A DNA stretch of 63,100 nt, the filler included, from Pseudomonadota bacterium (GTDB lineage: Bacteria > Desulfobacterota > Desulfobacteria > Desulfobacterales > JBDRRP01): assembly GCA_043825735.1 (NCBI GenBank). It is 5 parts of 5 records of this genome, joined end to end, with 100 filler letters (N's around TTAATTAATTAA, not from the genome) between each part and the next. Parts side by side here need not be neighbours in the genome. Positions count along the whole stretch, not along the records: positions 22,709 to 36,913 come from JBDRRP010000030.1; 4 more parts are not named here. One strand, 5' to 3'. The position numbers and the translations under genes are program-made. The notes under the pieces were generated by a model. That model did not search any database. It worked only from the letters and a program-made list of their open reading frames with translations, and had not been told where the DNA came from. Below, piece after piece: positions 8,180-51,158 of the stretch (its first letter is position 1; each line of letters begins with the position of its first letter).

Positions 8180-8273
8180 TTTATTATCTCTATTCCTATC
8201 CGATAAACAGAACATTTCCAGTGACTGTAGAGTTCCTGATTCCTGAAAATTGGAGACTTGTTGGAGATCAATA

Positions 8274-9524: not shown

Positions 9525-9771
9525 TACCCGCCGAAGGGCTCGCATCGTGTTACGTTCCAGGCGGGTTGCGGCGATGATAAGTGTCTGCTTATAACACAAG
9601 AAGATCAAGAAACACCGCCGCAGCAGGAGAATGGAAGAGGCAGGCTGGTTTATTACCAGGGCCTGGGAGCACTAGGGCCCAAAATGCACCAAGGAAAAGC
9701 TCAATTGCATTGACATGAGCCGAGACCAAATCTGAGATGCTTCGAAGAGGTCGAGGCGAGCTGGGTGGAAG

Positions 9772-12828: not shown

Positions 12829-12829
12829 G

Positions 12830-15028: not shown

Positions 15029-15031
15029 AAA

Positions 15032-22608: not shown

Positions 22609-22708
22609 NNNNNNNNNNNNNNNNNNNNNNNNNNNNNNNNNNNNNNNNNNNNTTAATTAATTAANNNNNNNNNNNNNNNNNNNNNNNNNNNNNNNNNNNN
22701 NNNNNNNN
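22609..22708. other. Artificial contig spacer
   Basis: N-run, TTAATTAATTAA (stops in all frames), N-run; 100 nt. Confidence 0.98.
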
Positions 22709-23562: not shown

Positions 23563-23577
23563 CGCATCTCTCTCTTA

Positions 23578-24054
23578 TTAGAGCGTTATCAGAGTAATAC
23601 GGTCTGTCGGCATACGACGATATTCGCGGTGTCCAGGTTCACCGTAGATTACATGACCATCATCAAGCTTGCCATTCCAGGACCACACCAACAGCCTTGT
23701 CCTTGAAAGCTTTTCAAGCAAACCGACCGGATTCAATTCCAAATCGGCGTCGAATATGATCTCCGTGTTGTCTACTGCAATCCTTGAACTGTTAATCTCA
23801 TCGAACATATCGGCAATCAAATCCGCGGCTCCCAGCTTGCGTTCCCGGATATCCAGAGGAAGCAGCCGTCTGCTCAGTTCGAGGCCCAAATTAAACAAGG
23901 GCATTTCAAACTGTTTGGCCATGGTGCGCAACAATGCCGTTTTGCCGGTCCCGGAACGCCCGACAACGAAAAGCAGTTTGGCGTAGCGTGCCTCAGCTTG
24001 GGCTATCGCTGCGGCACAATTGTCAGGATTGAAACACGTTTGGCTTTTGCTCAA
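23578..24054 (-). CDS. brxF: BREX type 3 P-loop protein BrxF
   Basis: VVGRSGTGKT, NLGLELSRRLL, DNTEIIFD, SWNG, Y.EPGHREYR; 158 aa directly upstream of the DUF6079 ATPase. Confidence 0.85.
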   Translation of the reverse strand: MSKSQTCFNPDNCAAAIAQAEARYAKLLFVVGRSGTGKTALLRTMAKQFEMPLFNLGLELSRRLLPLDIRERKLGAADLIADMFDEINSSRIAVDNTEIIFDADLELNPVGLLEKLSRTRLLVWSWNGKLDDGHVIYGEPGHREYRRMPTDRITLITL

Positions 24055-24126
24055 CTCATAGATCCTTATCTCAAGCGCTGAGGGTTTATCTTGGCACTGA
24101 TCCGAATACCCTTTAACTCGTAATGC

Positions 24127-24345
24127 TCATCTCGCAGTGCCTTTAGCAGTGCCCTGGGATTCATCATCCCTTTCGCCTGCTGCGCCAGACTTTACCCATT
24201 CGTCAACCTCTTCCTTACGGAATTTCCACAGCCTTCCAACTCGATGAGCTGGCATTCGCTTATCGGAGATCCATTTGTAGAGTGTATCCCGCTTAATTCC
24301 GAGGTAGGCTGCAATTTCATCTACGGAGAACCATCTGTCTTCCAT
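24127..24345 (-). CDS. Excisionase-type (HTH_17) DNA-binding protein leading the BREX operon
   Basis: MEDRWFSVDEIAAYLGIKRDTLYKWI..MPAHRVGRLWKF..EVDEWV; probable start is ATG 24345. Confidence 0.88.
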   Translation of the reverse strand: MEDRWFSVDEIAAYLGIKRDTLYKWISDKRMPAHRVGRLWKFRKEEVDEWVKSGAAGERDDESQGTAKGTAR

Positions 24346-24776
24346 TTTGAATCCTAACGATGGAAATTTAGTTTCTTGTGTCGGGTGGTATAAGATTGAA
24401 AGAAAATAATACCGTAGGTCTGGCCAGATAATGCCAGATACCAATAAACAGGTATAAATCGGCACAAATAAAGCACAGTAATAACTAAAATGTCAAACTT
24501 TTTCAGGGAATTCCAAAGATTATCTCATGCGCAGCTTATCGTGGTCGAACTTCCTCAATAGCTTTACCATATTTTTTGCCTGCCGGTCTTGCCCCAACAG
24601 CCCCCATCCTGGTCGTCCTAAAAATTTCCATCAAAAATATCGCCTCTGGCACCCATAGAGTGATCAGGGGGTAAGATTCGAAAACATACATTATAGCCCC
24701 CACCCCCAGGGCTACCATCCACAGGGCTGTCGATTCTTATCGATGGCCTTTCGTGCTTTGAAAGGAGGTGATCCAT

Positions 24777-25322
24777 TTGAATGAGAAATCCACAATACCA
24801 AGACAGCAGAGCCTTTTCCCATCCCCCGCCGAGACCCCTCACCATTCCAAGTTCATTTCAAATTACCGAGTTGCGCTGGTTAGAGACCGGCGCCTTCCCT
24901 TTGAGCAGTGCCGTCTGGCCAATTCCCAGCAGGCCCAGCCTATCGTCAAGCATCTCATTGAAGCCCACGGACAATCCGATCGAGAGCAGTTCTGCGTCCT
25001 GATGCTCAATACCAAGAACGAGATTGTCGGCGTGAATATCGTCAGCACCGGCAGCGTCTCATCGGCCCAGGTCTGTCCTCGTGAAGTGCTCAAGCCAGCT
25101 ATTCTGGCCAGTTCATCGGCAATTATCCTGAGTCACAACCACCCTAGTTGTGATGTGCAGCCATCTCCGGAGGATCTGGCTTTGACCGAGAAGCTGATCC
25201 ATGCCTGCCATCTCGTTGGCATTACCGTCCATGAGCACATCATCGTCTCGATGTTCGATGACCGGTATTACAGCATGGCGGACAACGGCATTATTCAGCG
25301 GATCTATGACCGGATAGGGTGA
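24777..25322 (+). CDS. radC: RadC-like JAB-domain protein
   Basis: DREQF.VLMLNTKN, PREVLKPAI, HNHPS..PSPED, EHII; AAAGGAGGTGA precedes TTG 24777. Confidence 0.9.
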   Translation: MNEKSTIPRQQSLFPSPAETPHHSKFISNYRVALVRDRRLPFEQCRLANSQQAQPIVKHLIEAHGQSDREQFCVLMLNTKNEIVGVNIVSTGSVSSAQVCPREVLKPAILASSSAIILSHNHPSCDVQPSPEDLALTEKLIHACHLVGITVHEHIIVSMFDDRYYSMADNGIIQRIYDRIG

Positions 25323-25405
25323 GACCGACATTTCCAAGAATTTCAATGGAGCCATTTGCCCCGGCGGCAAGTGGTTTTTTCATTTCGAAAGGAGGTGATT
25401 CGCCA

Positions 25406-25621
25406 ATGGCATACACACCGGAGCTTTCCATAAAATCGTCCAGCACCCTGAGACGGATCGCATGGGCTCTGGATCTGCCGATGACTCAAACCATTGAAAG
25501 AGTGTTCGAGCATTTGCCCCGAATCCTGGACCGGCAACTGGTCTGCAAGGCCTGCCGGGACCGGTCCAAGTGCTGCAACTGCCCCTTCAGTGAAAACCCA
25601 TTTACACCCGAAAGGAGGTGA
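25406..25621 (+). CDS. Small hypothetical protein with C-terminal Cys cluster
   Basis: AAAGGAGGTGA RBS; MAYTPELS..LRRIAWAL..PMT..CKACRDRSKCCNCPF. Confidence 0.75.
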   Translation: MAYTPELSIKSSSTLRRIAWALDLPMTQTIERVFEHLPRILDRQLVCKACRDRSKCCNCPFSENPFTPERR

Positions 25622-25626
25622 TCCAC

Positions 25627-25836
25627 ATGACCGTGCCCGGTGAATGCGTAAATGACGTCGTCACCAATTGCTGTGAATGCCACGCCGTGCTCAACATCGG
25701 TGTCCATCGCAGCGCAGCCGGCTACTATGTCGGCTTCTTTTGCCCATGTTGCGGCCCTTACAGCCGCGAGAGCGGGTATTACCGCAGTTTCGAGGAAGCC
25801 CAGGAGTCCCTGGAAAGCGGTCTTTACTGGCGCTAA
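25627..25836 (+). CDS. Small Cys-rich mobile-element protein
   Basis: AAAGGAGGTGA RBS; CCEC..SAAGYYVG..CPCCGPYSRESGYY..EEA. Confidence 0.75.
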   Translation: MTVPGECVNDVVTNCCECHAVLNIGVHRSAAGYYVGFFCPCCGPYSRESGYYRSFEEAQESLESGLYWR

Positions 25837-25936
25837 CCGCTACAACCATCCACCCCAACAGAGAAGCCCGGTGAGCAATGACGCTTGCCAGGCTTTTCGT
25901 GTTTCTGGACCCATCAAATCAAAAGGAGAATACACC

Positions 25937-26902
25937 ATGACTTACGACAGACAGGAAATGAAACGAGTGAACGCGGCAGAAGTACTTCCTCCGGAGGTGC
26001 ATCAGGAGCGCCGCATAACGGTTCCGAGCCTCATTCCTACGGCACCGCTGGATATGCCTGTGGAGCGCTTCTCTGAGGCCCTGGAGCGCCGTGAGGACAA
26101 CCGCAAGGCATTGCTCCGGTGGATTCAGTCCAACCTTCAGATCGGTGTCGATTATGGCCAGATTCACGTGGTCGGAAAGGACAAGTGCCGGCTGGCCAGT
26201 GAGGGGAAAGCTCATGAGTGCATCAATCCGAGGCACTGGAGCAAGCCATCGCTGTGGAAGCCCGGCGCCGAGAAAATCTGCGGCATGCTTGGGCTGATTC
26301 CGAGGTTTCCGAACCTCAAAGAATACGAAAGCGCCGCCCTTCGCGGGGAGGATCTGAAGGTCATCATTCTCAAATGCGAGCTTCACACGGGTAGCGGTTT
26401 CGTGGCCGCCGAGGGCTCCGGAGCCAGGCGTGTCGCCCAAGACAATGGGGATATTAACAAAAGTTTAAAGATGGCCGAGAAGTCGAGTCACATCGACGCT
26501 ACGCTTCGAGTGGCAGGCCTGTCGGAACTTTTTTCGCAAGACCTGGAGGATTTGCCAGATCAAACGCGGCAGCAGGTTCAACCGGATGCTCAACGGGGTG
26601 CGCCTCAGCCCGGATCAGAGCACCCGCAGGCAGATGACGGATCATTACGCACAGGCGAAAACAGCAACTCAAACAAGAATGCCGCCAACGGCCGGCAGAA
26701 TCAAAGACCCGCCAATGGTCAATCCAACGGCGGCAACCGTATCACCGGCAAACAGTACAAGTACATCATGAGCTTGATGCAGACGGCCGGCATGACCAAA
26801 AAGGAGCTGAACGAGCACTGCGTCAACACCTACGGTTCCGTGGTGGATCACATCACCCGGGCCGACGCCTCCAGCCTCATCGACTGGCTGCAGAACAGCT
26901 AA
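25937..26902 (+). CDS. Phage-type protein, possible single-strand annealing protein
   Basis: AAGGAG RBS; KPSLWKPGAEKI, NKSLKMAEK..IDA, Q/N-rich linker, short C-terminal domain ITGKQ...ASSLIDWL; upstream of an exonuclease. Confidence 0.6.
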   Translation: MTYDRQEMKRVNAAEVLPPEVHQERRITVPSLIPTAPLDMPVERFSEALERREDNRKALLRWIQSNLQIGVDYGQIHVVGKDKCRLASEGKAHECINPRHWSKPSLWKPGAEKICGMLGLIPRFPNLKEYESAALRGEDLKVIILKCELHTGSGFVAAEGSGARRVAQDNGDINKSLKMAEKSSHIDATLRVAGLSELFSQDLEDLPDQTRQQVQPDAQRGAPQPGSEHPQADDGSLRTGENSNSNKNAANGRQNQRPANGQSNGGNRITGKQYKYIMSLMQTAGMTKKELNEHCVNTYGSVVDHITRADASSLIDWLQNS

Positions 26903-26978
26903 ATCGATTCATTCAACTCACGGGGAAGGTGCCTTCTAGGGCCTTCCCCTTTTCATTGCCCAAAGAAAGGAAACGATC

Positions 26979-27809
26979 ATGACCAGAAAACAAGCATTGG
27001 CGGATTTCCAGAGCGAGCTTCACGTCAGTTACAGCCAGGTGTTCACCTATCTGGCGTGCCCCTTGAAGTATCAGTTCCAGTATGTCGAGCAGCGGCCGGC
27101 CGAAAGAATCAGTATAGCGCTGCCGTTCGGTTCCGCCATCCACAGCGCTATCGAGCGGTATCACCGAGGCCTGATGGATAACGGGGTGCCTGATCCGCTG
27201 TGGCAGTTGCAGGATGTGTTCGCCGAGGTGTTGACCGCCGGCCTGGACCGAGTGGAGGTGCCCATCATTTACAAACAGCAGACTCCGAACAGGGAGGCCG
27301 CCATCGACATGGGCAGAAAGATGCTGAAAGCGTTTTACGAAGGCGTCGATATGACCGGATTCGAGATTATCGGTATCGAGCTTCCTTTGACCGCCAGGCT
27401 GTACTCCGAGGAAGGACAGGCCCGTGATATGGTTGTGACAGGCATCATCGACCTTTTACTGAAGGACGCCGCCGGCAACGTCATCGCCGTGGACAACAAG
27501 ACGGCCAAGAACCCCTATGCTCAGAACACCGTGGATGAGGATCTTCAGTTGACCTCGTATGCCTACCTGTTGGCCGCCAACCGGTATGTGTTTCCCAAGG
27601 CCGATGTCTATTGTCGGTTCGACGTGCTTCGGAAATTGAAGACACCCAAGTTCGAGCAGCACTACACGACCAGGACCGCTGAACAGAGAAGGCGATTTGC
27701 CAAGCTAACCGATGCCGTACTGGCAGGCATCGAGGCACGCATATTCATGCCGAGCAAGAGCTGGATGTGTTCGGACTGCCAATACGCAAATGCGTGCGGA
27801 AAGTGGTAG
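26979..27809 (+). CDS. PD-(D/E)XK RecB/AddB/Cas4-like exonuclease
   Basis: HVSYSQ..YLACPLKY, FGSAIH, GIIDL..DNKT, QLTSY, C-terminal CSDCQY..C. Confidence 0.9.
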   Translation: MTRKQALADFQSELHVSYSQVFTYLACPLKYQFQYVEQRPAERISIALPFGSAIHSAIERYHRGLMDNGVPDPLWQLQDVFAEVLTAGLDRVEVPIIYKQQTPNREAAIDMGRKMLKAFYEGVDMTGFEIIGIELPLTARLYSEEGQARDMVVTGIIDLLLKDAAGNVIAVDNKTAKNPYAQNTVDEDLQLTSYAYLLAANRYVFPKADVYCRFDVLRKLKTPKFEQHYTTRTAEQRRRFAKLTDAVLAGIEARIFMPSKSWMCSDCQYANACGKW

Positions 27810-27815
27810 GCGTGG

Positions 27816-27846
27816 AAGCCCCGGTGGTGTGACGCTGCCGGGGCTT
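27816..27846. terminator. Probable terminator hairpin between convergent genes
   Basis: AAGCCCCGG...CCGGGGCTT just after the stop at 27809. Confidence 0.55.
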
Positions 27847-28123
27847 AGCCTCTGGTTAGTACCTCATGGCATTATCAAGGAAAGCGTTACTTGAAATACC
27901 GCGTTTATTCAGCAGGATGGATGAGGGATGACGCTCGTGACGATAGGGGGATCAAAACCTTTTCGGTTTTTCCCTTTGCCTGGACGTCACGCCCGACGAA
28001 AACGGTGGGAATGAGAAAGCCATTCCGTGATGGTCAGAAATTCAGCCCTCGTGCACTCATAGCTGTTTTAATTTTCGCTGCTTCAAGTGCTGGTGATGAA
28101 CTGGTGAGCAGATGGTGCTGCTA

Positions 28124-29203
28124 TTACCCATGCAGCTCGCGGTTGCAATGAATACAGGTGCCGGCACGTAGCCTGCTCCGTCGACGTTTTGCCACCGCCT
28201 TATTGACTTGACCACTAACATCCTTCGACTTCAACATATCGGAAAGGACCGCGACTGCCACTTCCTTAGGCATTGCATACATCAGTCCTCGCGCTCCTTC
28301 ATAGGAACAGTTCAGTGCAGCAAAAGCTTGCCCCCAACGTAATGCTTGAACTACTGCCTTTTTGCATTGGCTCAGGTTCGGCAAGCGATTTCGGTCGGAG
28401 AGCAAAGCATGAACGAATCCTGCGGTGCACCAGTCGCCGCTTCCAGCAGCATCTCTAAGCCGCGGAGCGGGAACAGCGGGCAACTCCTCTTCATGAACAG
28501 TATTCCGGCCTTGTCGAATCGTAACCCTCAATCCAGCATTGCCACGGGTCTCTATCTCTACTGGAACTTCCGCATCAGTGGCGGCATCCAGCACGCTCGA
28601 AAGTCTCTCGTGGGAATACTTGAAAACGTGGCACGCATGTAGGCACGCATTAAACAATCCCGGGTCCTTGATGCCGGACGGCTCGAATACGACAAGTGCC
28701 CCATTTTGCCGCGCATGAGCGGCAATCTCAAGGTTCGCCCGAGCGACCCGATCAAAGTAAAACAACGATGCAGATGGTATCGAAGCGATGAGCTCGTTGA
28801 TATCTCGCTGAAGCCATGGGCGATAGTTCGCTGTGTGAATTCCACATTTAGAACAGATTCGACTGAACCGGTGCCGTGCTGCCCCTTTTCGGTTGAATAT
28901 AATCTCCTGAAAGACAACCGGGGTCTGTGCATTTGCCTCTCGCAAAAGGAACCGCGTGTCGACCGACCAGTACTCCAAATCCCTGACGAGTTCATGCCCG
29001 GGCTGGTCATCGCCAATACGAGCTATCGGTGCGGATTTCCAGCCAAGATATGACAAAATCGCCAAGACGTTGCCGCAGGAACCGCCGGCAAAGCGCCGTT
29101 CCGTTGTGCGACCATTGATCGAACGCACTATGTCCAAGGCGACAAAGCCAGCACCAAGGCACCACGACTCAGCTATTTTTCCTGAGCTATGTTGTTTGTG
29201 CAT
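28124..29203 (-). CDS. PfkB/ribokinase-family kinase (gene E of the five-gene operon)
   Basis: GGSCGNV, ARIGDD..G, DAAGSGDWCTAG; GGAGA RBS before ATG 29203, overlapping the upstream gene. Confidence 0.88.
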   Translation of the reverse strand: MHKQHSSGKIAESWCLGAGFVALDIVRSINGRTTERRFAGGSCGNVLAILSYLGWKSAPIARIGDDQPGHELVRDLEYWSVDTRFLLREANAQTPVVFQEIIFNRKGAARHRFSRICSKCGIHTANYRPWLQRDINELIASIPSASLFYFDRVARANLEIAAHARQNGALVVFEPSGIKDPGLFNACLHACHVFKYSHERLSSVLDAATDAEVPVEIETRGNAGLRVTIRQGRNTVHEEELPAVPAPRLRDAAGSGDWCTAGFVHALLSDRNRLPNLSQCKKAVVQALRWGQAFAALNCSYEGARGLMYAMPKEVAVAVLSDMLKSKDVSGQVNKAVAKRRRSRLRAGTCIHCNRELHG

Positions 29204-30341
29204 AGCATTCTCCATACAACCATGCCGTGTAGCACTCAGAGGCCGACTCAGCGGGGACATGCCCCGTCAAGTTGTACCCTTGAGCATCGACGTGACCGAC
29301 ACCCACGTCAATTCGATCCCCCCCTCGACGCCACTGAGACAACTCGTAGGCAGCAAGTAGAGCCCCCAAAGACAGGAGCTTCGAGGACATCGCCGACACG
29401 ACAGCTTTGCAGCCGCCAAGTGGATGCAGTGCCTGTTGGTAGTGCAGCACCGATCGCATGATTTGCCGATAGACCTCGAATGGATTAGTCTCGGCGGCGT
29501 AGATGAAATTCTGAGGCTCTACACGAAGCTGATCGAAAAGTAGTTCGCGATATTCTAGAACGATATCATCGGCGTTACGTGGATTCCTTGCAGGCGAAGG
29601 CAACAATGGGCATATCTCATCAGGTTGAACGAGCTCGTACACGCGTTCAATTTGAAGTCGTTGATTCTTCCCCAGGAGTGGAATCCAGATGCGAGGTTGA
29701 TCGCGGGTTGCTTCCAGTTCGAAGCTGGCAGCAGCGAACCCATGGAGAAGCGTAGCGGCCTCGTCTATACCTTCGTCGACGACTTGGTCATCGCGCTCCG
29801 TAGAATGCGACACCACAACGTGCAGGTTAGGATGATTTCGATCGTGTTGTTCTTGGTCAAAGAGCGTCAGCATCTTTGAGAGCAGCGGGAAATAGAGCCC
29901 TCGAGGGAGAGCACTGATATCTACGATAACGTCTGTGTAGTTCAAAAACTCGTCAATGCTCAAGAACTCGTTGGCTATACTCCGAGATCCAATTCGGCGA
30001 CCATCATCTGAGAAAATCCGGATTGTCCGTATCCATATGTCGCCACGCTTGTTGAAAAGAGACTTCAACCGAAATCCGTTTGCATCCCGTTGGGCTCGGT
30101 ATTGATGTGACGGCGATTGGGGTCCCTCGTCGTACTCGATAACGAGAGCGTCTCGTGTGCCCTCCTTACCGAGGTCGAGAATCACGTCCGCACAATCGCA
30201 CATGCGAGTATCGAATCCGTGCCCCAACACAAAAAGCAAGTTCCTCTTTTTAGACAAGAGCTCATCCCAGAACGTTGTAAATTCATTCCCTCTGCGGAGC
30301 AAATAGTCCCGCCAACGCCAAGTCGTCGAATCATGGCTCAT
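29187..30341 (-). CDS. Uncharacterised alpha/beta protein (gene D), 384 aa
   Basis: ATG 30341 overlaps the upstream TGA (ATGA). Motif-like segments LFVLGHGFDTRM, VIVDISALPR, WIPLLG, NPFEVY. Confidence 0.75.
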   Translation of the reverse strand: MSHDSTTWRWRDYLLRRGNEFTTFWDELLSKKRNLLFVLGHGFDTRMCDCADVILDLGKEGTRDALVIEYDEGPQSPSHQYRAQRDANGFRLKSLFNKRGDIWIRTIRIFSDDGRRIGSRSIANEFLSIDEFLNYTDVIVDISALPRGLYFPLLSKMLTLFDQEQHDRNHPNLHVVVSHSTERDDQVVDEGIDEAATLLHGFAAASFELEATRDQPRIWIPLLGKNQRLQIERVYELVQPDEICPLLPSPARNPRNADDIVLEYRELLFDQLRVEPQNFIYAAETNPFEVYRQIMRSVLHYQQALHPLGGCKAVVSAMSSKLLSLGALLAAYELSQWRRGGDRIDVGVGHVDAQGYNLTGHVPAESASECYTAWLYGECYAQTT

Positions 30342-32266
30342 AGTGGAAGCTCCTCTCTGCGCGGGACCGTGTATCCCTTTTCTATCCAACCCACAAAATC
30401 GCGCAGGGGTTTCTCGCGAAAGCCACCATACTGCAGGGGTAGGCGATACTTCATGCATACGAGGCGGTTCAAGTACAAGACCATGTATCGCCCTCCCTTG
30501 ACCTTATAGTCGAGAGTTGCCTGGAAAACGTTTTGAGCAAGCGTGGTGCCCAGCATTTCGGCGAAACGACTGTATGCAGGATTCTTTTCAAGGAACTCCT
30601 TGTCAAGAAGACGATCTCGGTCAGCCATGGAAATAGCGATACCGGTGACTCCAGGTGAGTAAGGGGCATTGGGTCGGTAGGTCTCATGACGGCAGAATTG
30701 CCCCACGTTCTCGATGAACCGCAAGACATCTCTGCCATTGACCGCCCGCCGGGGGAGCTCCGAAAGACGGGATTCAAAAGCATCTATCAACAGTTTCTCT
30801 TGACGCTGTGGCGAGAGGACAGGGCTTCGTCGAAGCAACGCAGCCCCAAGCGACTCCTCAAATAGATCCCCGGCCAGTCGAAGGAATTGCTCAATATTGA
30901 ACGACCCTAGGTTTGCCACACAGGTCGTTCCAAAGTAGTAAGGGATGCTGAATTCGGTTGCAACAAACAGCCCCGCTGCTGCACGCACTGAAGAGTCCTC
31001 ACGCTCCTCGAGCATCTCCGAAGGGAGATCGAAATCGAAAGTCAACTGCGACTTTCGTCGATCGCGCTCTATGAGAATTTCAAGCGTACGCCATGCGACG
31101 AGCTTTTCACGCAGCGTCCCGTCAAACTCGGCGCGTGAGCGCACCCATTCCCGGTACTTCTTGTGCGTGCCTACAAGTCGATTAACTCGATCTTGAACAG
31201 TCTGTAGCGCCGAGAACAGAGTGGTTTCGAACTCCGCCGGATCAAGGCGGCTGTCGAGAGATGCGGCAAAGGACCCGGTCGTCCAGGCACCGGCAGCTAC
31301 ATCGGACGCCATTCGAGCTCGACGCTCGGCAATTCCAGTTGCCGCTGCCTCGAAACGACGCTTCCTCCAAGCATCCTCTATATTGATAATCTCGCCATAG
31401 TCACGCCCCTCAAGTGCACCATTGGCAAGGAGTTCCTCACGAGACAACGCCTCAAGCCGCTCAGCAATCCATGTACTGGTCGCGCTTCGCTGCTCAAGAA
31501 GAGTCTCTCTGAGTGTTTGGCGTTGCAAGGCTGTCAACTTGTGGACGTCATCAAGTAGAACGATCCACCGCTGGGCGGGATGCACACCATCGACTTTAAT
31601 CGAGCCAGCATCAAGCAAGCGGAGAGAATGCAGGCAATCATGGCCGGGCACAGCCAAATTTCCAGAGGGAACAAGACTGTCGATAGCATCGCACACAGCT
31701 CGCTCAAGATGCTCTGCCCAAGTTCGGGCATGTCCACCGTCACAAGGAAGATCTAAGCCAGGGATCGGTGGGTCGTCGGGTAGAGCGTCAATCGTGATCC
31801 GGGATAGATCCTCAGGATAACGCAAATGCTTGGCCACCAGAGCACTCCGGAGGGCGCCCATGACGACTCGAGCGTCTAGCAACGCCAAAAAAAGCCTATT
31901 TGCGCGAATATCTGGTAGTCCGAGGTCACTGAGCGCAGGGAAAGTCCGGCGTGAGGTCAACATAATTGCCAAGACTAGGATCCCAGCCTCGTTCACAACT
32001 TCCAATGAGCGGGCCTTTGCAAAGACCTCTCGGTAGGGATCTGAACTCCGAAGCGCCAGCAGGGCTTGCAGGACAGATGGAGTAAATAGTCTTAGCAACG
32101 ATGTTTTACCGCCCCCAGGAGCGCTACGAATGAACAATGGCTTTCCCTTCGTGGCTCCGTCAGGCAGCAAGTCAAGAACCGCAGGTCCGAACAGCCTGAG
32201 GAAGTCTGCATCCGTTTCGATGCTCTCTGCATGCTGCAGCCGGAAGGGATTGCGCATGTCTCTCAT
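30338..32266 (-). CDS. P-loop NTPase, STAND/ORC-CDC6-like (gene C)
   Basis: N-terminal NPF, Walker A FIRSAPGGGKTS, Walker B WIVLLDD, long helical C-terminus; ATGA overlap. Confidence 0.8.
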   Translation of the reverse strand: MRDMRNPFRLQHAESIETDADFLRLFGPAVLDLLPDGATKGKPLFIRSAPGGGKTSLLRLFTPSVLQALLALRSSDPYREVFAKARSLEVVNEAGILVLAIMLTSRRTFPALSDLGLPDIRANRLFLALLDARVVMGALRSALVAKHLRYPEDLSRITIDALPDDPPIPGLDLPCDGGHARTWAEHLERAVCDAIDSLVPSGNLAVPGHDCLHSLRLLDAGSIKVDGVHPAQRWIVLLDDVHKLTALQRQTLRETLLEQRSATSTWIAERLEALSREELLANGALEGRDYGEIINIEDAWRKRRFEAAATGIAERRARMASDVAAGAWTTGSFAASLDSRLDPAEFETTLFSALQTVQDRVNRLVGTHKKYREWVRSRAEFDGTLREKLVAWRTLEILIERDRRKSQLTFDFDLPSEMLEEREDSSVRAAAGLFVATEFSIPYYFGTTCVANLGSFNIEQFLRLAGDLFEESLGAALLRRSPVLSPQRQEKLLIDAFESRLSELPRRAVNGRDVLRFIENVGQFCRHETYRPNAPYSPGVTGIAISMADRDRLLDKEFLEKNPAYSRFAEMLGTTLAQNVFQATLDYKVKGGRYMVLYLNRLVCMKYRLPLQYGGFREKPLRDFVGWIEKGYTVPRREELPL

Positions 32267-33336
32267 GCGTCCCCCTTGTGACGACTGATCCGAGGGAAAA
32301 GGGCTCTGACTGATGAACGTTCCTCGGCCCAGAGTAAGAAGAGAGAGTTGTTCGGCGAGTTGTGGTGAAGGACCACAGGAAGGCCTCCACCAGCGAATCC
32401 AAACTTCAAGTCGGTTCGGCCCTTCCGGGTGTGCTCGTCCTCAAGCGACTCGTCATAGTACTTCTCAGCGAGCACAGCGAACTCATCGGAACGGGTTACG
32501 CAAAGATCATCATCAAGATGCTGAACGGCAGTGACCACGAACGATGAGGCAGCTTCTCCCAAACACGCAGCAGCGGAGTCCCGCATGCGCTGGAGTGCAG
32601 TATTGGTCGCAACATAGAGCGCGACTATGATGAGGGTATCCGGCAATCGGACGAGAATCTTCCAGGAGTCGTCATCGCGTATGCGCGCCAGGAACTTGGC
32701 AATCTTGCCGGTGTAAGCGCCGTTCTCTTGCCGGAAATAACTGGCGCCGCTGGCGGTGAAGTCATCGAGGAGAACAAGCGCACGAATGGCCGGTTGTCCA
32801 TTAATAGGTTTGAATCGCTCTGCGAGCTCTTCTAACTTTTGGCGGGGTAAATCGTAGCTCTGAAATATCTGTTCGTGGCTTAGGTCACGGTTAGACCTTC
32901 GGAACATATCGATGCGTGCTCCATCGCTAAGGCCTAAAAAGAGTGACGATGCCTGGAGGCTCTTGAACGCATCTGTCCCAACTATAGCACCAATTTGATA
33001 CCGGCGTTTGCCTGTGGCGGTAACAGCGTGATCTATCAGGAGCGGTCGGATGAAATCTGGAAACACAACGGCCGAGAAATGGGCCATTTCCTCATGAGAA
33101 AAGAAAACCAAACGGCTCTTGACGAAGTCATAGGCAATTTGTCGCTCTTTCGCTTCCTGAAACTGCGCGAGCCATAAGGCGAGGCTCTCCAGGAACCGCA
33201 TCCCAGGAGAGAATTGTTGATAGCCGTCGTACTTGAGATCCGCAAGCGCTTGAAGAATGGGTCGCTCGCGAGCGACATCATCAGGCTCCCAGCCCATTAC
33301 TTGAGCAAGAAGCCTTTCTGCAAGAAGGGCTCTCAT
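32263..33336 (-). CDS. Phosphoribosyltransferase-like protein of the conflict-effector type (gene B)
   Basis: PRPP-loop LVLLDDFTASG; C-terminal FGF..GLPVVLHHNSPNNSL.LLW; ATGA overlap. Confidence 0.75.
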   Translation of the reverse strand: MRALLAERLLAQVMGWEPDDVARERPILQALADLKYDGYQQFSPGMRFLESLALWLAQFQEAKERQIAYDFVKSRLVFFSHEEMAHFSAVVFPDFIRPLLIDHAVTATGKRRYQIGAIVGTDAFKSLQASSLFLGLSDGARIDMFRRSNRDLSHEQIFQSYDLPRQKLEELAERFKPINGQPAIRALVLLDDFTASGASYFRQENGAYTGKIAKFLARIRDDDSWKILVRLPDTLIIVALYVATNTALQRMRDSAAACLGEAASSFVVTAVQHLDDDLCVTRSDEFAVLAEKYYDESLEDEHTRKGRTDLKFGFAGGGLPVVLHHNSPNNSLFLLWAEERSSVRALFPRISRHKGDA

Positions 33337-35213
33337 TTGCGCGGCCCTAAGTTCTCAATTGCATCAAGATTGATGCGCACAGCACCCGAATGGGGCTGAA
33401 GCGCGGTCAAGTAACGAATGGTGGCAGAAGGCCCAAGACACCCTCGTGGGGCAAGATTCCAGCAAGAGCCCGGGGCCGAAGAAACTTCATCGACGCTTAG
33501 GGAGAAACGGTGTCTAAGCAACTCAAAGTCATTACCTGGCCATCCCCCTCGGTCGCCGATACAGAGTAAAACTCGAGGGGAAACAAGCTCCGTTAATCGT
33601 TGCACGACCGCTACTTTAGATGTCTCTGCCTCAATAATGTCGAAGGAATGCGCCGAGCATAGCACCCGAACACCCGGGCCCCCCGCTGCAAGAATCATGT
33701 CCATGAGATGTTGATGCAAGTCAACACGTGGTTCGTCACCATTCGGGGTAACCATTATCTGCGAGGGCCGAGCCTCAATGGTAGTAAGGGATGTGAGCAG
33801 CTTATCCTCGGTGAGTATCTTCTCCAATGAAGCTAAAACGGCTGAGGTTGGTCCGGTTTTGTTGGGCTTTGTGTCGTCTGCAAGGATGCCTACGTCGGCA
33901 CCGTTATAGTACCCGACATAGACATTCTTCCATACCTTTGGGGGAAGTGCACCTTGTAGTGCTTGACGCACCGACCTCCCCCGGCCGGTGGCAATACCTA
34001 TGGCGACGCCGAGATTAAGAACATGCAACAAAACGTCAGCGGTGGCAGACGGAATCGGGCCAAAGCGTTCAGACTGATGGACGAGAGTGCCATCATAATC
34101 GAGAACGACTGCACCGATATCGGCCGACGCGAGTTCTTTTCGAAAGGACTCATACTCATTTGAGTAGATAGTGCGAACTGCGTTGGATGTGGAATTCAAC
34201 CGTCGTAGCTTCCGATCAACAGCCGGCGAAACAGTGATCTTGCTTTTTGATGTACGGGAGGGCGCAAGGTGAAACAATCTCCTCCCGAAATCAGGAACGT
34301 TTGGCTTACCAGGATCTCTGCCAAGATACTCGGCAATATCGAGTGTCAAGTGGAGAGCTTGGACGAGGAGATCAATGGTGGCTGAGGGACCCTTTTGATT
34401 TGTACTGAGCTGGACCACTGGTACGTCCTTGGGGAGGAGCCGAAGGGTCTTCATGGCTAGCGCTCGGGTATCGGGTGTGATCAGCGCGAGAACGAACGTA
34501 GATGAATGGCGCTGCGAGAGCCATAGATGCCTCCCGTGTCCAAAGTTGCGGTAGTCTGAGATCTGAACATGGAGAAGTGCCGACTCGTGCAATCTTGACT
34601 CAAGGTCAGTCGCTATTGGCGACGACCAACCACCATGAAGAACGATGACAGAATCACGCCCTTTCCACGAATCGTCAATGATCTGGCACTGGAATTCTGC
34701 GACTGGATCGAAGCGACCATAGGCACGGGCGATAATGACCATCGTTGCCAGCAGCGAGTTCGTGGCAAGGTATCCATCCTTCCCCGACGGAATTGGGTCG
34801 TCAAACACGTATCCCCGGGAACATGCACGAACATCAGAAGCAAGCGGGCTCCCCTTTCGGGTACAGATCGCACCTAAGGTAGGCACTTCGGCAGCGACTG
34901 CAGCTCGAGCAGCTGCAAGAACGTCAGTGTTCTTGCCTGAGGCAGACAGGAACAGGATGCTGCGAGCATGGAGTGCTGCTTCGTCGAGCAACAATTCAAG
35001 CGGTGTCGCGTGCCTGCTCATGCCACGCGCGACGCGTCGATGAATAAGGGCAGCAAAGTGAGCTGCTGCTGATGAGCCTCCTGAACCAACCGCGACGAGA
35101 GAAGCACCGCAGGTTTCATTGACGAAACGCTGCATCACGCCGATTGGCAAGGATGACGCCCACGTAAGCGTACCCGAGAGTGTCTTGATCTCGGAGGCGT
35201 AGCTCTTACCCAC
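33333..35213 (-). CDS. Tandem SIS (sugar isomerase) plus HAD-IIB phosphatase fusion (gene A)
   Basis: VGSGGS, LSASGKN.DV, DGYLATNS, DYRNFGHGRH (SIS); VLDYDGTL, ATGRG, IGD.G..GND (HAD); GGAGG RBS. Confidence 0.85.
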   Translation of the reverse strand: MGKSYASEIKTLSGTLTWASSLPIGVMQRFVNETCGASLVAVGSGGSSAAAHFAALIHRRVARGMSRHATPLELLLDEAALHARSILFLSASGKNTDVLAAARAAVAAEVPTLGAICTRKGSPLASDVRACSRGYVFDDPIPSGKDGYLATNSLLATMVIIARAYGRFDPVAEFQCQIIDDSWKGRDSVIVLHGGWSSPIATDLESRLHESALLHVQISDYRNFGHGRHLWLSQRHSSTFVLALITPDTRALAMKTLRLLPKDVPVVQLSTNQKGPSATIDLLVQALHLTLDIAEYLGRDPGKPNVPDFGRRLFHLAPSRTSKSKITVSPAVDRKLRRLNSTSNAVRTIYSNEYESFRKELASADIGAVVLDYDGTLVHQSERFGPIPSATADVLLHVLNLGVAIGIATGRGRSVRQALQGALPPKVWKNVYVGYYNGADVGILADDTKPNKTGPTSAVLASLEKILTEDKLLTSLTTIEARPSQIMVTPNGDEPRVDLHQHLMDMILAAGGPGVRVLCSAHSFDIIEAETSKVAVVQRLTELVSPRVLLCIGDRGGWPGNDFELLRHRFSLSVDEVSSAPGSCWNLAPRGCLGPSATIRYLTALQPHSGAVRINLDAIENLGPRK

Positions 35214-35255
35214 TTGTTCCTCCGATGTTTTTTCCTGATTGAGCCCTCCTCATGC

Positions 35256-35492
35256 TTATCTGTCTCCGTCCTCTCGGTGGGGCGATTCGGCCGCTTGCTC
35301 ACCAGTGCCTCTCGCATCGTCGCCACTGCCGAACGCAACCTACTCATCGGCAGCCAAATTCTTGACCTTCGAGAAGCTGCCGATCCGTCGGCCCGGCATC
35401 CCTCACGGGGAGAGCCAGTTGAAAACGGTATCGCAGTCTACACCGAGGTAGCTCGCTATTTCATCGACAGAAAGCCAACAATTTTCCAGCAC
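35256..35492 (-). pseudogene. Decayed paralog of the excisionase-type HTH gene at 24127-24345
   Basis: Manual translation from GTG 35492 (GAGGA RBS): MLENCWLSVDEIASYLGVDCDTVFNWLSP*GMPGRRIGSFSKVKNLAADE*VAFG; in-frame stops at 35403-35405 and 35340-35342. Confidence 0.8.
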
Positions 35493-36183
35493 GTATCCTC
35501 TCGAAAAGCGGCAGCGCTAAATCTGGGTTTTATATCCCGAGCCCGGCTTTATGGTCAAGCAGAACTGTTCGAACAACATCTAACTGGAGCGAACAGTGTC
35601 GAATATATAGGAACGATAGGCAAGAAGCTGTATTTGCAGCACATCAAGCTCATATGTCCCAGGTTGTCGCCTGCACCGGTTCACATGAATGAACCAATGC
35701 ACCGCGATGAGAACATCCTACAGGCGATGCGAAACGTCGGGGCCGAAGCCGAATTGAGCAAATCGGCTCATAGACTTACAGTCAGCTCCTTAGGCGCCTG
35801 GAAGACCAAATCGTTTCACTAATTTGTTCGGGTCAGATTGCGTATTTCCAGCGTCAGGTAGCCTCGGGCGAAAATCTTTTTTTTATTGCCAGTAGCCCCC
35901 CGTGTGGCTGGCATATTGAAGTCGCGGACTATTTGCCATAAATAACTATCCAATAAATTTCAATGGGTTGCATCATTAAGATGCCAGTGCACGCCCCCAT
36001 TTTGTAGTTTCCACCCAATCCCGATCTCTGCCAACAATCCAGTTTTGCCGCCACACAGCCCCCGGCCTTACTCCAAATATTTCCAGTTCCAGCCATCCAC
36101 AACCACTAAACAGGCGATCTGCCCCGGCGCAGGTCGCCTTTTCGTGTCCTAAAAATCCAACCATAGAAAGGAGCCCCTATGTC

Positions 36184-36913
36184 ATGCACAATCTAAACGA
36201 CCATCAAAAAGCCGCCGCCGCCTTCATGTTCGGCACCGCCAGCGTGGTAGCCATCGCAGGATCTGGGAAAACTGCCACCATGGCTGCACGGATAGGTAAT
36301 TTGGTCCGCAGCGGTATCCCGCCGGAAAAGATCCTGGGCCTGACCTTTACCAGGAACGCCGCAGGGGCCATGAGAAACAAGCTCAGGCCTGTCCTACTGG
36401 ATCAATCCTCCAAGGTGACCCTTTCCACTATCCATTCCTTTTGCCACCGGCTGTTGAAGGAGGAAGGCCGGACCTTTGAAATGCTTCATGGAAAGCGTCA
36501 GGTCTATCTCATGCGCAAGGTGATCAAGAGGCTTGACGTGGGTGAGTTTTCCGCCGGCTTCGCCCTTCGTGAGATCGGTCTTGCCAAGAGTCGCCTGATG
36601 GACTGGGAGCGCTTCCGGTCATTTCACGAAAATGATGAAGTGATGCAGGCCGTCGCCGAGATTTACCAGGTCTATGAAGAGGAGAAACGCAAATGCCTTT
36701 GTTTGGATTTCTCAGACCTGCTGATGGAAGCCCACAGATTGCTCAAATCGCACAAGGACCGATGCAACAGCTACCGGCAGACCTTTCCGCATATTCTGGT
36801 GGACGAATACCAGGACACCAATCCCGCTCAGGTGGAGGTTCTGAACCTTCTGGCCGGAAGGAATGATCACTCATCACTGTGGGTATGTGGCGATGATTGG
36901 CAGAGCATCTTCG
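36184..36913 (+). CDS. UvrD/PcrA-family helicase (5' part; cut by contig end)
   Basis: LNDHQ, AIAGSGKT, LTFTRNAA, STIHSF, LDFSDLL, ILVDEYQDTN, VCGDDWQSIF. Confidence 0.92.
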
Positions 36914-37013
36914 NNNNNNNNNNNNNNNNNNNNNNNNNNNNNNNNNNNNNNNNNNNNTTAATTAATTAANNNNNNNNNNNNNNNNNNNNNNNNNNNNNNN
37001 NNNNNNNNNNNNN
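36914..37013. other. Artificial contig spacer
   Basis: N-run, TTAATTAATTAA, N-run. Confidence 0.98.
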
Positions 37014-37692
37014 CGAGGAGACGAGCAAGATCATCAAGACCATCGATGAGATCGCCTTTCAGACCAATTTGCTGGCCTTGAACGCAGCGGTCGAGGCGGC
37101 CCGGGCCGGCGAGGCCGGTGCAGGTTTTGCCGTTGTGGCCGACGAGGTGAGAAACCTGGCCATGCGGGCGGCCGAAGCGGCCAAGAACACGGCCGCGCTC
37201 ATCGAGGGGACGGTGAAAAAGGTCAAGGACGGCTCCCAGTTGGTGGCCACCACCAGCGAGGTCTTTGCCAGCGTATCGGACGCTTCGGCAAAGGTCGGGG
37301 AACTGGTCTCGGAGATTGCCGCAGCCTCTTCCGAACAGGCCCGGGGCATCGACCAGATCAACATCGCCGTGACCGAAATGGACAAGGTGACCCAAAGCAA
37401 CGCGGCTGGCGCCGAGGAATCGGCCAGCGCAGCAGAGGAAATGAACGCCCAGGCCGAGCAGATGAAGGCCTTCGTGGCAGACCTGGTGGAAATCGTGGGG
37501 CGCTCATCGAAGGGGGCGGCCTCTCAGCGCACGGCGCGAAGCGTCGCTGCCGTTCCGCGCTCTTCCCGTCAGAAAAAAGCCGGTCTCCCGGCGCCGGCCA
37601 GCAGATCGAAGTCACTGGGCACCAGCGCCCGCGGCGGCAAGCCGGTCCAGGTGATACCCTTTGACGAGGACGAAGACTTCGGCGATTTTTAA
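37014..37692 (+). CDS. Methyl-accepting chemotaxis protein (3' part)
   Basis: [40 protein letters not shown]; ends in DFGDF pentapeptide. Confidence 0.95.
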
Positions 37693-37809: not shown

Positions 37810-38520
37810 TTATGGCCGGTGGCCGTTCAGAAACTGCCGGTAGATGCGATAGTGATCGGTCTCCTTGTAGGCAACCCGCCGGATCGGGGTGTGATCGAAG
37901 CTGTAGATCCGGGCATCGGGACAGGCCAGCAGGATGGGAGAGTGGGTGGCCATAATGAACTGGGCGTTGCCGGCCCCGCCCAGCCGTTTAAGAAGATCCA
38001 GAAGTTCCAACTGGGTCTTCGGAGAGAGCGCGGTCTCCGGCTCGTCCATAAGATAGAGCCCCGGTACGGTGTAGCGGGCCCTGAAAAAACTCATGATGGA
38101 TTGCCCGTGGGACTGGCTCAGCAGAGAGCGGCCCCCGAAGTAGTCGAGTTGCCCGGGATCGGCCACGGCCCAGCGCTCCAGCACCCGCCTGAAGTCGGAA
38201 AACGCTGACGATCCGAAGAAGGCCCCGGGTGTCGGCCCCTTTGTCCACGCCACCGACACGGTTTCATAAAACCGCTCTTCATAGGGGTTGGCATCGACGC
38301 GGGCATTTTCCCGGCTGCGCCAGATGTGGATGCCGCATCGGCGGGCCAAGGCTTCGAGCAGGGTCGATTTGCCGGTGCCGTTCTCGCCGACGAATATCGT
38401 TACGGGGCTGTCAAGCACCAGTTCGGTTTCCCGCGCGAAAACACCGACATTGAACGGGAACCGGTCTTTGACGGGATACCGCTCCGGATGAAGTCTGATG
38501 GACTCAAGATGCAGGGGCAT
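37810..38520 (-). CDS. Predicted ABC-type (AAA family) ATPase
   Basis: VGENGTGKSTL, QSHGQS, YLMDEPETALSP, MATHSPIL. Confidence 0.88.
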   Translation of the reverse strand: MPLHLESIRLHPERYPVKDRFPFNVGVFARETELVLDSPVTIFVGENGTGKSTLLEALARRCGIHIWRSRENARVDANPYEERFYETVSVAWTKGPTPGAFFGSSAFSDFRRVLERWAVADPGQLDYFGGRSLLSQSHGQSIMSFFRARYTVPGLYLMDEPETALSPKTQLELLDLLKRLGGAGNAQFIMATHSPILLACPDARIYSFDHTPIRRVAYKETDHYRIYRQFLNGHRP

Positions 38521-38649
38521 ATGACCAGCTTCCGGGTGCTGCGATTTGCCGACGGGCAATTGACGCCGTCATTGAACAGTGCTTAGCGCCTTTGTGAGAA
38601 ATTGCTTTTTTTATGAGATAGCCGAAAGCATACCCGACAGAGACGGCGC

Positions 38650-39384
38650 TCACCGGCGATGCATCAGGTATCGGATTTCTCCCTCTTTGGTCAGGGGGAT
38701 CACGTGGGCGGCGTAATAGTCACGGATCACTGCGGCGTCGATGGCGTGGCGGATCGTTGCCTTTGACGAGGCCTGCATGGAAATGGTTTTATCGGCCACG
38801 CGCTGCAGAATCTGGCGTTCCACTTCGGGCCGGGTCAACAGCGTTAGCAGCGTCGCCCTGTCGCCGTTATCGATGGCCCTCTGATAGGCGTCCGGATTGG
38901 TGCGGTATTTGCTCTCAGCCACGTACATGGCGCCGTAGTGGATCCGGCGGGAGATGGCCTGAATGGCATACACGTCATTTTCCACACTGGAGCCGTACTG
39001 GGAATCATCGCCGGTCCTGCAGATCTTCGGCAGCAGCCTCAGGTAACTGTTGATGATGCCGTCGGTGACATTGACCAGGTTGTAATCGGGCACATGAAGG
39101 CAGTTTTCAGGAAGCGTGACCTCTCGGCGGACCTCGGGAAGATCGCGGTTGAATGGGCGCTCTTCCGGCACGTGGAATCTGCCGAAGCGGGCATCCATCT
39201 CTTCCTGGTATTTCAACCGGAGCGCAAAGAGGCTCAAAACGGGCTCGCCCCGGAAGCCGCTTTTGCCGGGAATGTAGACCGTTTCGTTTCGGCGATACTG
39301 GGCCCGGTCGATGAGGCGCACGATAATGGTCTCTTCGAGACTTTCCAGGTCGGAGGCGATTTGGATCAGGTCAGGGGCACTCAT
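38650..39384 (-). CDS. Chorismate mutase of the eukaryotic (yeast Aro7/plant) AroQ type
   Basis: LEETII.RLIDRAQY..N..VY, GRF..PEERPF, GDD..YGSS..D..A.QAISRRIHYG..VAESKY, VIPLTKE.EI.YL; 244 aa. Confidence 0.85.
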   Translation of the reverse strand: MSAPDLIQIASDLESLEETIIVRLIDRAQYRRNETVYIPGKSGFRGEPVLSLFALRLKYQEEMDARFGRFHVPEERPFNRDLPEVRREVTLPENCLHVPDYNLVNVTDGIINSYLRLLPKICRTGDDSQYGSSVENDVYAIQAISRRIHYGAMYVAESKYRTNPDAYQRAIDNGDRATLLTLLTRPEVERQILQRVADKTISMQASSKATIRHAIDAAVIRDYYAAHVIPLTKEGEIRYLMHRR

Positions 39385-39556
39385 GCGGTCTCCGTCGATA
39401 AAAGGGTGACCTGCCTTTTACCGCTAAGGGCGCCGGCAGGCAAGCGGAAACCTTGTGGATTCAGGAATTGAGGGATTCAGGGATTTGTCCGCCGGTGCCG
39501 TGCGGCGGACGCTAATGACGACGCGTTGCCGGTGTTACCGATCTGCACCTGCCGTT

Positions 39557-51058: not shown

Positions 51059-51158
51059 NNNNNNNNNNNNNNNNNNNNNNNNNNNNNNNNNNNNNNNNNN
51101 NNTTAATTAATTAANNNNNNNNNNNNNNNNNNNNNNNNNNNNNNNNNNNNNNNNNNNN
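51059..51158. other. Artificial contig spacer
   Basis: N-run, TTAATTAATTAA, N-run. Confidence 0.98.

Follow-up and report, generated by a model that had tools for sequence, protein, structure and literature searches.

A mobile five-gene cassette joining a PRTase-CE protein, an ORC-CDC6-like ATPase and a tandem-CARF protein to two sugar-phosphate enzymes: a predicted nucleotide-centred conflict system

Activation of Retron-Eco11, a retron of type III-A, lowers phosphoribosyl pyrophosphate (PRPP) and aborts infection (PMC12746101). In the PUA-Calcineurin-CE-HAD system of Escherichia coli ECOR28, a HAD phosphatase in series with the effector collapses the deoxynucleoside triphosphate (dNTP) pools and causes abortive infection, the trigger being m6-dAMP from degraded Dam-methylated host DNA (bioRxiv 10.64898/2026.01.15.699771). 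Binding of cA4 by the CARF-HAD protein Chp leads its HAD phosphatase to deplete ATP (PMC12715507), and ShosT binds PRPP, its fused pyrophosphatase being proposed to drive the reaction forward and its base substrate being given as unknown (PMC11961720). Here we describe an operon of five genes, A to E, at positions 28124-35213 of a 63,100-nucleotide stretch of DNA (the window) from a bacterium of the Desulfobacterales (assembly GCA_043825735.1). The operon is one instance of a cassette that is widespread, moves horizontally and is inherited as a unit, and its central genes are assigned to a phosphoribosyltransferase (PRTase) of the 'conflict effector' (CE) type, an ORC-CDC6-like ATPase and a CARF6-family protein. 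Predicted cassettes of these three components have very probably been presented before, the likely sources being Nicastro et al. in 2023 and Makarova et al. in 2020.

The five genes span 7.1 kb and are laid out as follows.

Gene A, 33333-35213, minus strand: predicted SIS-HAD fusion of 626 aa, with a GTG start and a GGAGGA Shine-Dalgarno sequence 6 nt upstream
Gene B, 32263-33336, minus strand: predicted PRTase-CE protein of 357 aa
Gene C, 30338-32266, minus strand: predicted ORC-CDC6-like ATPase of 642 aa
Gene D, 29187-30341, minus strand: predicted tandem-CARF protein of 384 aa, starting at the 40th codon of the longest open reading frame (ORF)
Gene E, 28124-29203, minus strand: predicted PfkB-family kinase of 359 aa, starting at the 20th codon of the longest ORF

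The internal starts of D and E were chosen because the orthologues begin at those codons (D orthologues are 377-385 aa). Read directly from the sequence, the A/B, B/C and C/D junctions are ATGA overlaps and the D/E overlap is 17 nt; the five co-oriented genes and their overlaps are as an earlier prediction made from the sequence alone (the original prediction) had stated. The window consists of at least five contigs joined end to end, with N spacers at 22609-22708, 36914-37013, 51059-51158 and 59450-59549; each join appears as a pair of 44-N runs, and any claim of neighbourhood across a join is void. The contig of the operon is window 22709-36913, and window 1-22608 maps to a different contig. 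Directly upstream of A and divergent from it lies an ORF of 202 aa (35214-35822, plus strand) with no Pfam, NCBIfam or PADLOC family, for which tblastn gave matches of about 44% identity in loci L001 (upstream of A, on the opposite strand), L005 and L013; it could be a genuine small gene or conserved sequence upstream of A. A consensus promoter scan returned fewer promoter-like sites than shuffled sequences and none upstream of A, and is uninformative for this organism.

The five-gene arrangement is far beyond chance, and the same genes recur together in dozens of unrelated loci. Using tblastn with the five window proteins, we compared the operon with one locus from a related genome and 80 metagenome loci picked by similarity to D. 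All five genes were complete, on one strand and in order in 32 of these 81 loci, and most of the others were cut by contig ends. Among loci with sufficient DNA, the counts of presence were 65 of 66 for C, 51 of 52 for B, 41 of 42 for A and 75 of 76 for E, with junctions that are mostly 4-nt overlaps. As to missing genes, L044 keeps D and E only, and L031 has no E directly downstream and carries an E-like gene elsewhere. Joint presence of the five genes extends to copies with as little as about 45% identity, to 19 plasmids and to two gene orders. Among 72,556 plasmids searched, D was found on 19 records and A and B on 20 each; all 19 records with D also hold A and B close by, nine of the 19 were typed as conjugative, and the carriers include conjugative plasmids of rhizobia, agrobacteria and others. 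The order A-B-C-D-E is seen, for example, in L093, a Sulfitobacter conjugative plasmid, where the cassette sits between relaxase/coupling-protein genes and virB11; the order B-C-D-A-E occurs in Paenarthrobacter pTC2 and, judged by coordinates, in three Rhizobium or Bosea plasmids. No match was found among 50,697 phage records. The distribution is patchy: the CARF6 model matched in 3 of 401 genomes of the phylum of the window. Conservation of the genes together, a check proposed in the original prediction, is therefore what these loci and plasmids display.

L044 deserves a separate remark, being the only locus in which D and E (7577-9735) are present while the upstream 7.5 kb contain none of the other three genes. 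There the pair is flanked by a DUF5131/PDC-M41B gene and an IetA-like ATPase, and it could be either a relic or a two-gene form.

Gene B is assigned to the PRTase-CE proteins of the retron type and is predicted to be the effector. It matches Pfam PF24390 with 67.3 bits (cut-off 27) over residues 55-349 and the PADLOC retron PRTase_III-A models at E 1.9e-11. The PRPP loop LLDDFxxSG and the motif G313-x14-P328 N329 N330 are invariant, and the latter corresponds to the Gx14PNN signature given for retron PRTases in PMC12746101. An AlphaFold2 (AF2) model (mean predicted local distance difference test, pLDDT, 80.9) has uracil, orotate and purine PRTases as its best folds (Z 9.0-7.0), and Foldseek gives the same families; a sequence search of solved structures returned no match for B. 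A reading of the PADLOC name 'PRTase_III-A' as an accessory of type III-A CRISPR was rejected, since the name fits the retron type III-A of PMC13712802 and PMC12746101.

Gene C is likewise assigned to the ORC-CDC6-like AAA+ ATPases, as a predicted switch or sensor. The match to Pfam PF24389 scores 67.4 bits (cut-off 27) over residues 6-612, and in an alignment of 17 sequences the Walker A residues G51, G53 and K54 and the Walker B residue D239 are invariant and D240 nearly so. The pairing of a PRTase-fold effector with an ORC-like ATPase, which the original prediction had put forward, is found in the Pfam families of B and C and again in the PRTase-CE and ATPase pair of locus L085 (below). At the C-terminus of gene C (30338-30370), the same 17 sequences have a short, loosely conserved, leucine-rich tail (endings such as EELPL, ERLPL, ESLL and GGLFS).

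Gene D had been called unknown in the original prediction, and this has to be revised: its product is assigned to the CARF6 family as a stand-alone tandem-CARF protein, and is predicted to be a receptor for a nucleotide ligand. No Pfam family matched D, and the PADLOC model PDLC01910 'CARF6--CARF_CARF_CARF' matched over the full length at E 1.1e-113. In the AF2 model (pLDDT 77.8; predicted template modelling score, pTM, 0.84), the best fold by VIA-align is Can1 (6sce_A; Z 15.1, root-mean-square deviation 3.2), whose single chain contains two CARF domains, with 232 residues aligned over both halves of D. Ranks 1-19 of this fold search are all CARF proteins (Z 15.1 to 8.5), Can1 being followed by the cyclic-oligoadenylate-binding proteins Csm6, Cam1, Can2, Card1 and Csx1, and D carries no effector domain. 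Foldseek placed tandem universal-stress-protein, KaiC and transporter domains first; these were rejected on account of their poor TM-scores and the dominance of CARF in VIA-align. A sequence search of solved structures gave no match for D, and a protein atlas returned only unnamed 'hypothetical protein' clusters. Homologues of D fall into 1107 clusters (90% identity) at E 1e-5 or better, and about 60% identity is kept across records of Myxococcota, 'Deltaproteobacteria', Fermentibacter and Fimbriimonadaceae. Mean column identity is highest in D, at 71%, against 46-57% in the other four proteins.

The two outer genes are predicted to encode sugar-phosphate enzymes. Gene A appears to fuse a double-SIS module of the sugar-phosphate isomerase type (about residues 1-330) to a HAD-IIB (Cof-type) phosphatase (about 365-626). 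Its Pfam matches are Hydrolase_3 (E 2.7e-5) and SIS (0.023, below cut-off), with a weak match to NCBIfam HAD-SF-IIB; over residues 24-250 the family profile matches the double-SIS GlcN6P deaminase/GlmS-like chains 8eol and 3hba (E 1.8e-6), and a single-sequence search of solved structures found no match. Among 15 sequences, the SIS motifs GSGGS, SAxGxNxD and DYRNFxHGxH and the HAD motifs DYDGT, ATGRG, K533 and GDxxxxxGND are invariant. Homologues of A form at least 1713 clusters, all of about 620 aa.

Gene E would be a sugar or riboside kinase of the PfkB family with a conserved four-cysteine cluster. It matches Pfam PfkB at E 2.2e-16, its family profile matches fructokinases, ketohexokinases and ribokinase-family chains (best E 1.5e-12), and its NCBIfam matches (iolC_N, ribose-1-phosphate kinase, fructokinase) are all far below cut-off. 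The catalytic motif DxxGxGDW is invariant. Of the four cysteines, C117 and C120, in the lid insertion, are invariant, and C350 and C353, near the C-terminus, are conserved in at least 90% of the sequences. The cluster looks like a zinc site, to our knowledge an unusual feature for PfkB kinases, and might be a docking or regulatory element. The 'PfkB' mentioned in a defence review was considered and set aside, as it belongs to an unrelated kinase-kinase-phosphatase system.

PF24389 was found in 17 of the 401 genomes of the phylum, and seven of these loci were annotated.

L085: PRTase-CE (E 2.5e-53), then the ATPase (E 3.9e-104) as the last gene before the contig end
L086: D12 DNA methylase, then metallophosphoesterase, ATPase and CARF6 (E 4.5e-63)
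L087 and L088: a fusion of protein kinase and ATPase, followed by CARF6 (E 1.5e-21 and 2e-18)
L089: divergent, complete A-E cassette (28-41% identity), adjoining AbiEii and an integrase
L090 (genome G309): NADAR, A, B, C and D without PfkB; flanked by McrBC and Mrr on the upstream side and by an integrase with GajA/GajB-like genes on the downstream side
L091: weak, partial PF24389 match; no CARF6

Counting the window, CARF6 lies directly downstream of the ATPase in six of the seven loci with downstream DNA, and the effector varies. The PADLOC model name CARF6--CARF_STK_AAA among the matches of L087 and L088 suggests that a fused kinase-ATPase-CARF form also exists. Because the effector changes while CARF6 keeps following the ATPase, C and D would be a sensing or regulating pair and B the effector. 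The original prediction had proposed a PRTase-ATPase-gene D core extended by sugar enzymes; in agreement, the ATPase and the gene-D family recur with other effectors in cassettes that hold neither A nor E, L086 having a DNA methylase.

Two variants bear on the accessory genes. In L090 a NADAR gene (2861-3496) shares 4 nt with the start of A, and PfkB is absent; its product matches a riboflavin-intermediate N-glycosidase model at E 1.8e-26 and the NCBIfam model 'NADAR family anti-phage protein' at E 2.7e-20, the latter below cut-off. In L039 a sixth gene (3648-4268) of 206 aa stands between A and B; it is dCTP-deaminase/dUTPase-like (TIGR02274, E 4.3e-11, below cut-off) and has a C-terminal stretch that is hydrophobic by eye. 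The same slot is occupied in L040, L045, L046 and L047, the gene being split into two ORFs in L046. The replacement of PfkB by NADAR and the dCTP-deaminase/dUTPase-like insert support a putative nucleotide or ribose-phosphate role of the accessory genes.

To describe the surroundings of the cassette, we scanned 150 ORFs (at least 100 aa, within 7.5 kb) from 26 loci, taking PADLOC defence genes at E 1e-10 or better. Specific defence genes were found in the flanks of 9 of the 26 loci.

L001: DrmD, a type III methylase and PDC-M19
L005 and L050: a type I restriction enzyme
L018: PDC-S01
L020: BrxA
L044: IetA and PDC-M41B
L046: PDC-M41A/B
L048: pAgo with its nuclease, and AbiEi; Pfam adds DarT and a NADAR antitoxin
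L049: a type I methylase with its specificity subunit

Three further loci (L017, L038, L061) have generic PADLOC matches only, and six others (L003, L006, L010, L013, L021, L039) have integrase, recombinase, transposase or toxin-antitoxin genes. The remaining flanks include housekeeping genes (asparaginase, PGK, ribonucleotide reductase, ThiI), and no sugar transporter or regulator recurs in the flanks of the 26 loci. The flanks thus vary and often hold defence or mobility genes rather than metabolic ones, the five genes travel together, and of the operon's products only two have PADLOC matches, B with the retron PRTase models and D with CARF6; in neighbourhood, co-conservation and the lack of a fully matching named system, the original prediction has held.

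With a probability of about 0.55, we consider that the operon is a mobile, self-contained, nucleotide-centred immune (conflict) cassette, which would act by depleting nucleotides or PRPP. Entry or replication of a phage or another foreign element would yield a nucleotide-type ligand, which the tandem-CARF protein D would bind and, together with the ATPase switch C, release the PRTase B. The released B would consume PRPP, break nucleotide glycosidic bonds, or both; the nucleotide supply would collapse and replication of the invader would be aborted. Cleavage of nucleotide glycosidic bonds by PRTase-CE is reportedly described in the Nicastro study. A and E would act on the ribose-phosphate side, most likely by moving the sugar-phosphate product onward, so that depletion would be pulled forward and be hard to reverse. 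Analogies for this proposal are the HAD phosphatase that augments the effector of PUA-Calcineurin-CE-HAD, the pyrophosphatase proposed to drive the ShosT reaction and the depletion of ATP by CARF-HAD effectors.

Several points weigh against this interpretation. The cassette holds no cyclase as a source for the CARF ligand. Across the three genomes that were searched, the Cas10 palm-domain match was no stronger than marginal: with model PF22335, which also fires on E. coli controls, the own genome of the operon gave 25.5 bits against a cut-off of 27, and the best of the three, in G309, just reaches the cut-off only when matches in neighbouring frames are counted, the third also falling below it. 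A CD-NTase (SMODS) was found in only two of the three. We had considered that D reads the signal of a resident type III CRISPR or CBASS system; this was set aside, given these marginal Cas10 matches and the SMODS match in two genomes, three genomes being too few to decide. B resembles known folds only moderately well (best Z 9.0), and the substrate-level matches of A and E are all under the curated cut-offs. The sister cassettes have no A or E, so the ATPase-CARF pair does not need them, and a kinase and a phosphatase in one operon would oppose each other and are not obviously a one-way sink. As regards context, the flanks of 14 of the 26 loci have no PADLOC match at all and several are housekeeping, and the flank counts are an association, with no background rate for random loci, rather than a measured enrichment. 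The immune phenotype, the trigger and the ligand, the direction of the PRTase reaction and the substrates of A and E are predictions from sequence and analogy.

The opposition of kinase and phosphatase suits instead a make-and-erase pair, and the best surviving alternative, which we hold to be unlikely yet worth keeping in view, is signalling that does not depend on a cyclase: SIS-HAD and PfkB, possibly with the PRTase, would make, mature or erase a ribose-phosphate or nucleotide-like CARF ligand. In a variant that we rate just as tentatively, A and E would convert an infection-derived nucleotide into a messenger, and the tandem CARF would then fire the ATPase-gated PRTase. This would fit the lack of a cyclase in the cassette and of a consistent one across the three host genomes, and the high conservation of D (71% against 46-57%) is what one fixed ligand would lead one to expect. 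L044, with D and E only, is also in keeping with it. Moreover, A and E stand where sister cassettes of the L086 type carry a DNA methylase, and methylase-derived m6-dAMP activates the PUA-Calcineurin-CE-HAD system (bioRxiv 10.64898/2026.01.15.699771), so that a fourth module may supply the ligand or its precursor. On the other hand, CARF6 occurs in sister cassettes that have neither A nor E, and a NADAR N-glycosidase can replace PfkB in L090, an exchange that sits uneasily with a single fixed pathway of synthesis. We found no substrate evidence, and no known CARF ligand is made by such enzymes.

The exchange of PfkB and NADAR as alternative partners would also suit a model in which the PRTase is toxin-like and A and E (or NADAR) protect the host or restore its metabolism by recycling or detoxifying the PRTase product. 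One example would be the recovery of ribose-5-phosphate, with either ribose or an N-ribosyl-phosphate adduct as the starting compound. Kinases of the ribokinase type and N-glycosidases of the YbiA type could both regenerate ribose-5-phosphate. The match of the L090 NADAR to the 'NADAR family anti-phage protein' model (below cut-off), the DarT toxin gene beside a NADAR antitoxin-type gene next to the cassette in L048, and the translational coupling of all junctions, as in toxin-antitoxin pairs, agree with such a role. Nevertheless we regard it as improbable: as far as its contig reaches, the PRTase-CE cassette of L085 has no A or E, no evidence of toxicity was found for B, and the PRTase of Retron-Eco11 is reported not to be toxic when expressed alone (PMC12746101).

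That the operon is an ordinary accessory metabolic one travelling on mobile elements, serving to salvage nucleosides or pentoses or to make a nucleoside-like metabolite, seems very improbable. In favour of it, sugar or nucleotide enzymes account for three of the five products, annotators use the names 'sucrose-6-phosphate hydrolase' or 'HAD hydrolase' for A and 'fructokinase' or 'carbohydrate kinase' for E, and some flanks hold housekeeping genes. Against it, no transporter, regulator or glycosyltransferase recurrently adjoins the cassette, the ATPase-CARF pair is shared with cassettes having metallophosphoesterase or protein kinase effectors and DNA methylases, B falls in a retron effector family, and the cassette is patchy (3 of 401 genomes) and found beside BREX, pAgo, DarTG, type I restriction-modification, Gabija-like and AbiE genes.

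On its own contig, the operon has the following neighbours.

22709-23562: BrxC, residues 1-284, truncated where the contig ends
23578-24054: BrxF
24127-24465: HTH_17/mad1-like gene
26979-27809, plus strand: PD-(D/E)XK nuclease, flanking the operon
36184-36913, plus strand: N-terminus of a UvrD/GajB-like helicase, flanking the operon and cut by the contig end

A RadC gene is also present. The minus-strand operon is thus placed antisense between plus-strand nuclease and helicase genes, as had been noted from the sequence. BREX-3 had also been placed on this contig; BrxF and the start of BrxC are indeed there, and the rest of BREX is not. The assignment to type 3 rests on BrxF, which we take to be specific to BREX type 3. 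The absence of a transporter, glycosyltransferase or sugar regulator, likewise noted earlier, was confirmed among the Pfam-scanned ORFs of the contig. Truncation by contig ends, not decay, explains the fragments at the joins, namely BrxC, UvrD and an MCP signalling domain at 37069-37692.

The other contigs of the window hold further loci of interest. On a contig other than that of the operon, window 6612-22335 contains a Druantia-type locus by PADLOC, with these features.

6612-9524: m5C methylase, Vsr and an AspBHI-like methyl-directed restriction enzyme, before the Druantia-type locus
9772-12828: DruF-like gene
15032-21139: DruE2, a full-length PADLOC match (E 0)

The same locus has a gene of 732 aa without a family and a DruK-like PD-(D/E)XK gene. 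On a third contig, 37810-43249 encodes an AAA_27/SMC-like protein of 1230 aa (weak LmuB-like PADLOC match), a 244-aa product without a family and a 249-aa AAA_15/AAA_21 ATPase with PtuA/AriA-like matches, and is possibly another defence locus. The last contig carries phage packaging genes at 60375-62944, a large terminase (Terminase_6C) and a gp3-like small terminase; the large terminase has an intein splicing domain match of 27.3 bits, below the cut-off of 35.8.

The cassette is common (more than 1000 clusters of D and at least 1700 of A at 90% identity), spread over many phyla and strictly co-inherited, and it is compact enough to be cloned and dissected. It bears on the open question of what CARF sensors read when no cyclase is present. 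If depletion with a sink is what the cassette does, a sugar-phosphate sink would make nucleotide depletion irreversible; if the sugar-phosphate enzymes take part in signalling, they would represent a new class of immune messenger chemistry.

In the literature we found no paper that brings together CARF, PRTase, ORC-like ATPase, PfkB and SIS-HAD, nor a tested member, within a search that did not extend to Nicastro 2023 and Makarova 2020. Retron-Eco11 shares with B the PRTase subfamily, the PRPP loop and the Gx14PNN motif. In contrast to the type III-A retrons, control in the present cassette would be exerted by an ATPase and a CARF protein instead of a reverse transcriptase and its msDNA; no reverse transcriptase was detected in the operon or among the 39 Pfam-scanned ORFs of the window, a scan that did not include the msr/msd non-coding RNA. 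The PUA-Calcineurin-CE-HAD system resembles the cassette in combining a nucleotide-targeting CE effector, a sensor of a small ligand and a HAD phosphatase, and differs in having PUA rather than CARF, a calcineurin-like effector rather than a PRTase, and a C1-capped HAD where a HAD-IIB is predicted here; it has no ATPase, SIS or PfkB.

D has the same fold as the CARF effectors of type III CRISPR systems (Can1, Csm6, Can2/Card1), in the tandem form of Can1, but unlike those ancillary effectors it has no effector domain, and no Cas10 lies nearby among the scanned ORFs. No cas gene family was seen among the scanned ORFs of the operon's contig, a scan that did not include CRISPR arrays. ShosTA, in which a defence-associated PRTase likewise takes part, pairs a pyrophosphatase-PRTase fusion (ShosT) with a DNA-binding antitoxin, and the operon has no such partner.

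For the outer genes, known sugar-phosphate pathways offer a comparison. The ADP-heptose (GmhA/HldA/GmhB) and fructosamine (FrlB/FrlD) pathways combine SIS, PfkB and HAD enzymes in series on one phosphosugar. The weak NCBIfam matches of E include fructoselysine 6-kinase and heptose-7-phosphate kinase, and the SIS module of A resembles the GlmS/NagB-II type. However, the rfaE_dom_I match of E reaches 20.4 bits against a cut-off of 345, the match of A to a phosphoheptose isomerase chain is at E 1.8, and, unlike in these pathways, neither a nucleotidyltransferase nor a transporter is present here and the context is mobile and rich in defence genes.

The closest likeness is to the predicted PRTase-CE/ORC-CDC6-like/CARF6 conflict cassettes, with B, C and D above curated or very strong family thresholds and the order effector-ATPase-CARF6 shared with L086-L088. 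Pfam (PF24389, PF24390) and PADLOC (CARF6) already list the parts, and the combination of a CE effector, an ORC-like ATPase and a CARF is a type of system that has probably been predicted in print. Compared with those cassettes, that of the window has no DNA methylase and adds the SIS-HAD fusion and the PfkB kinase, and there is a real chance that this sugar-enzyme extension hides new chemistry.

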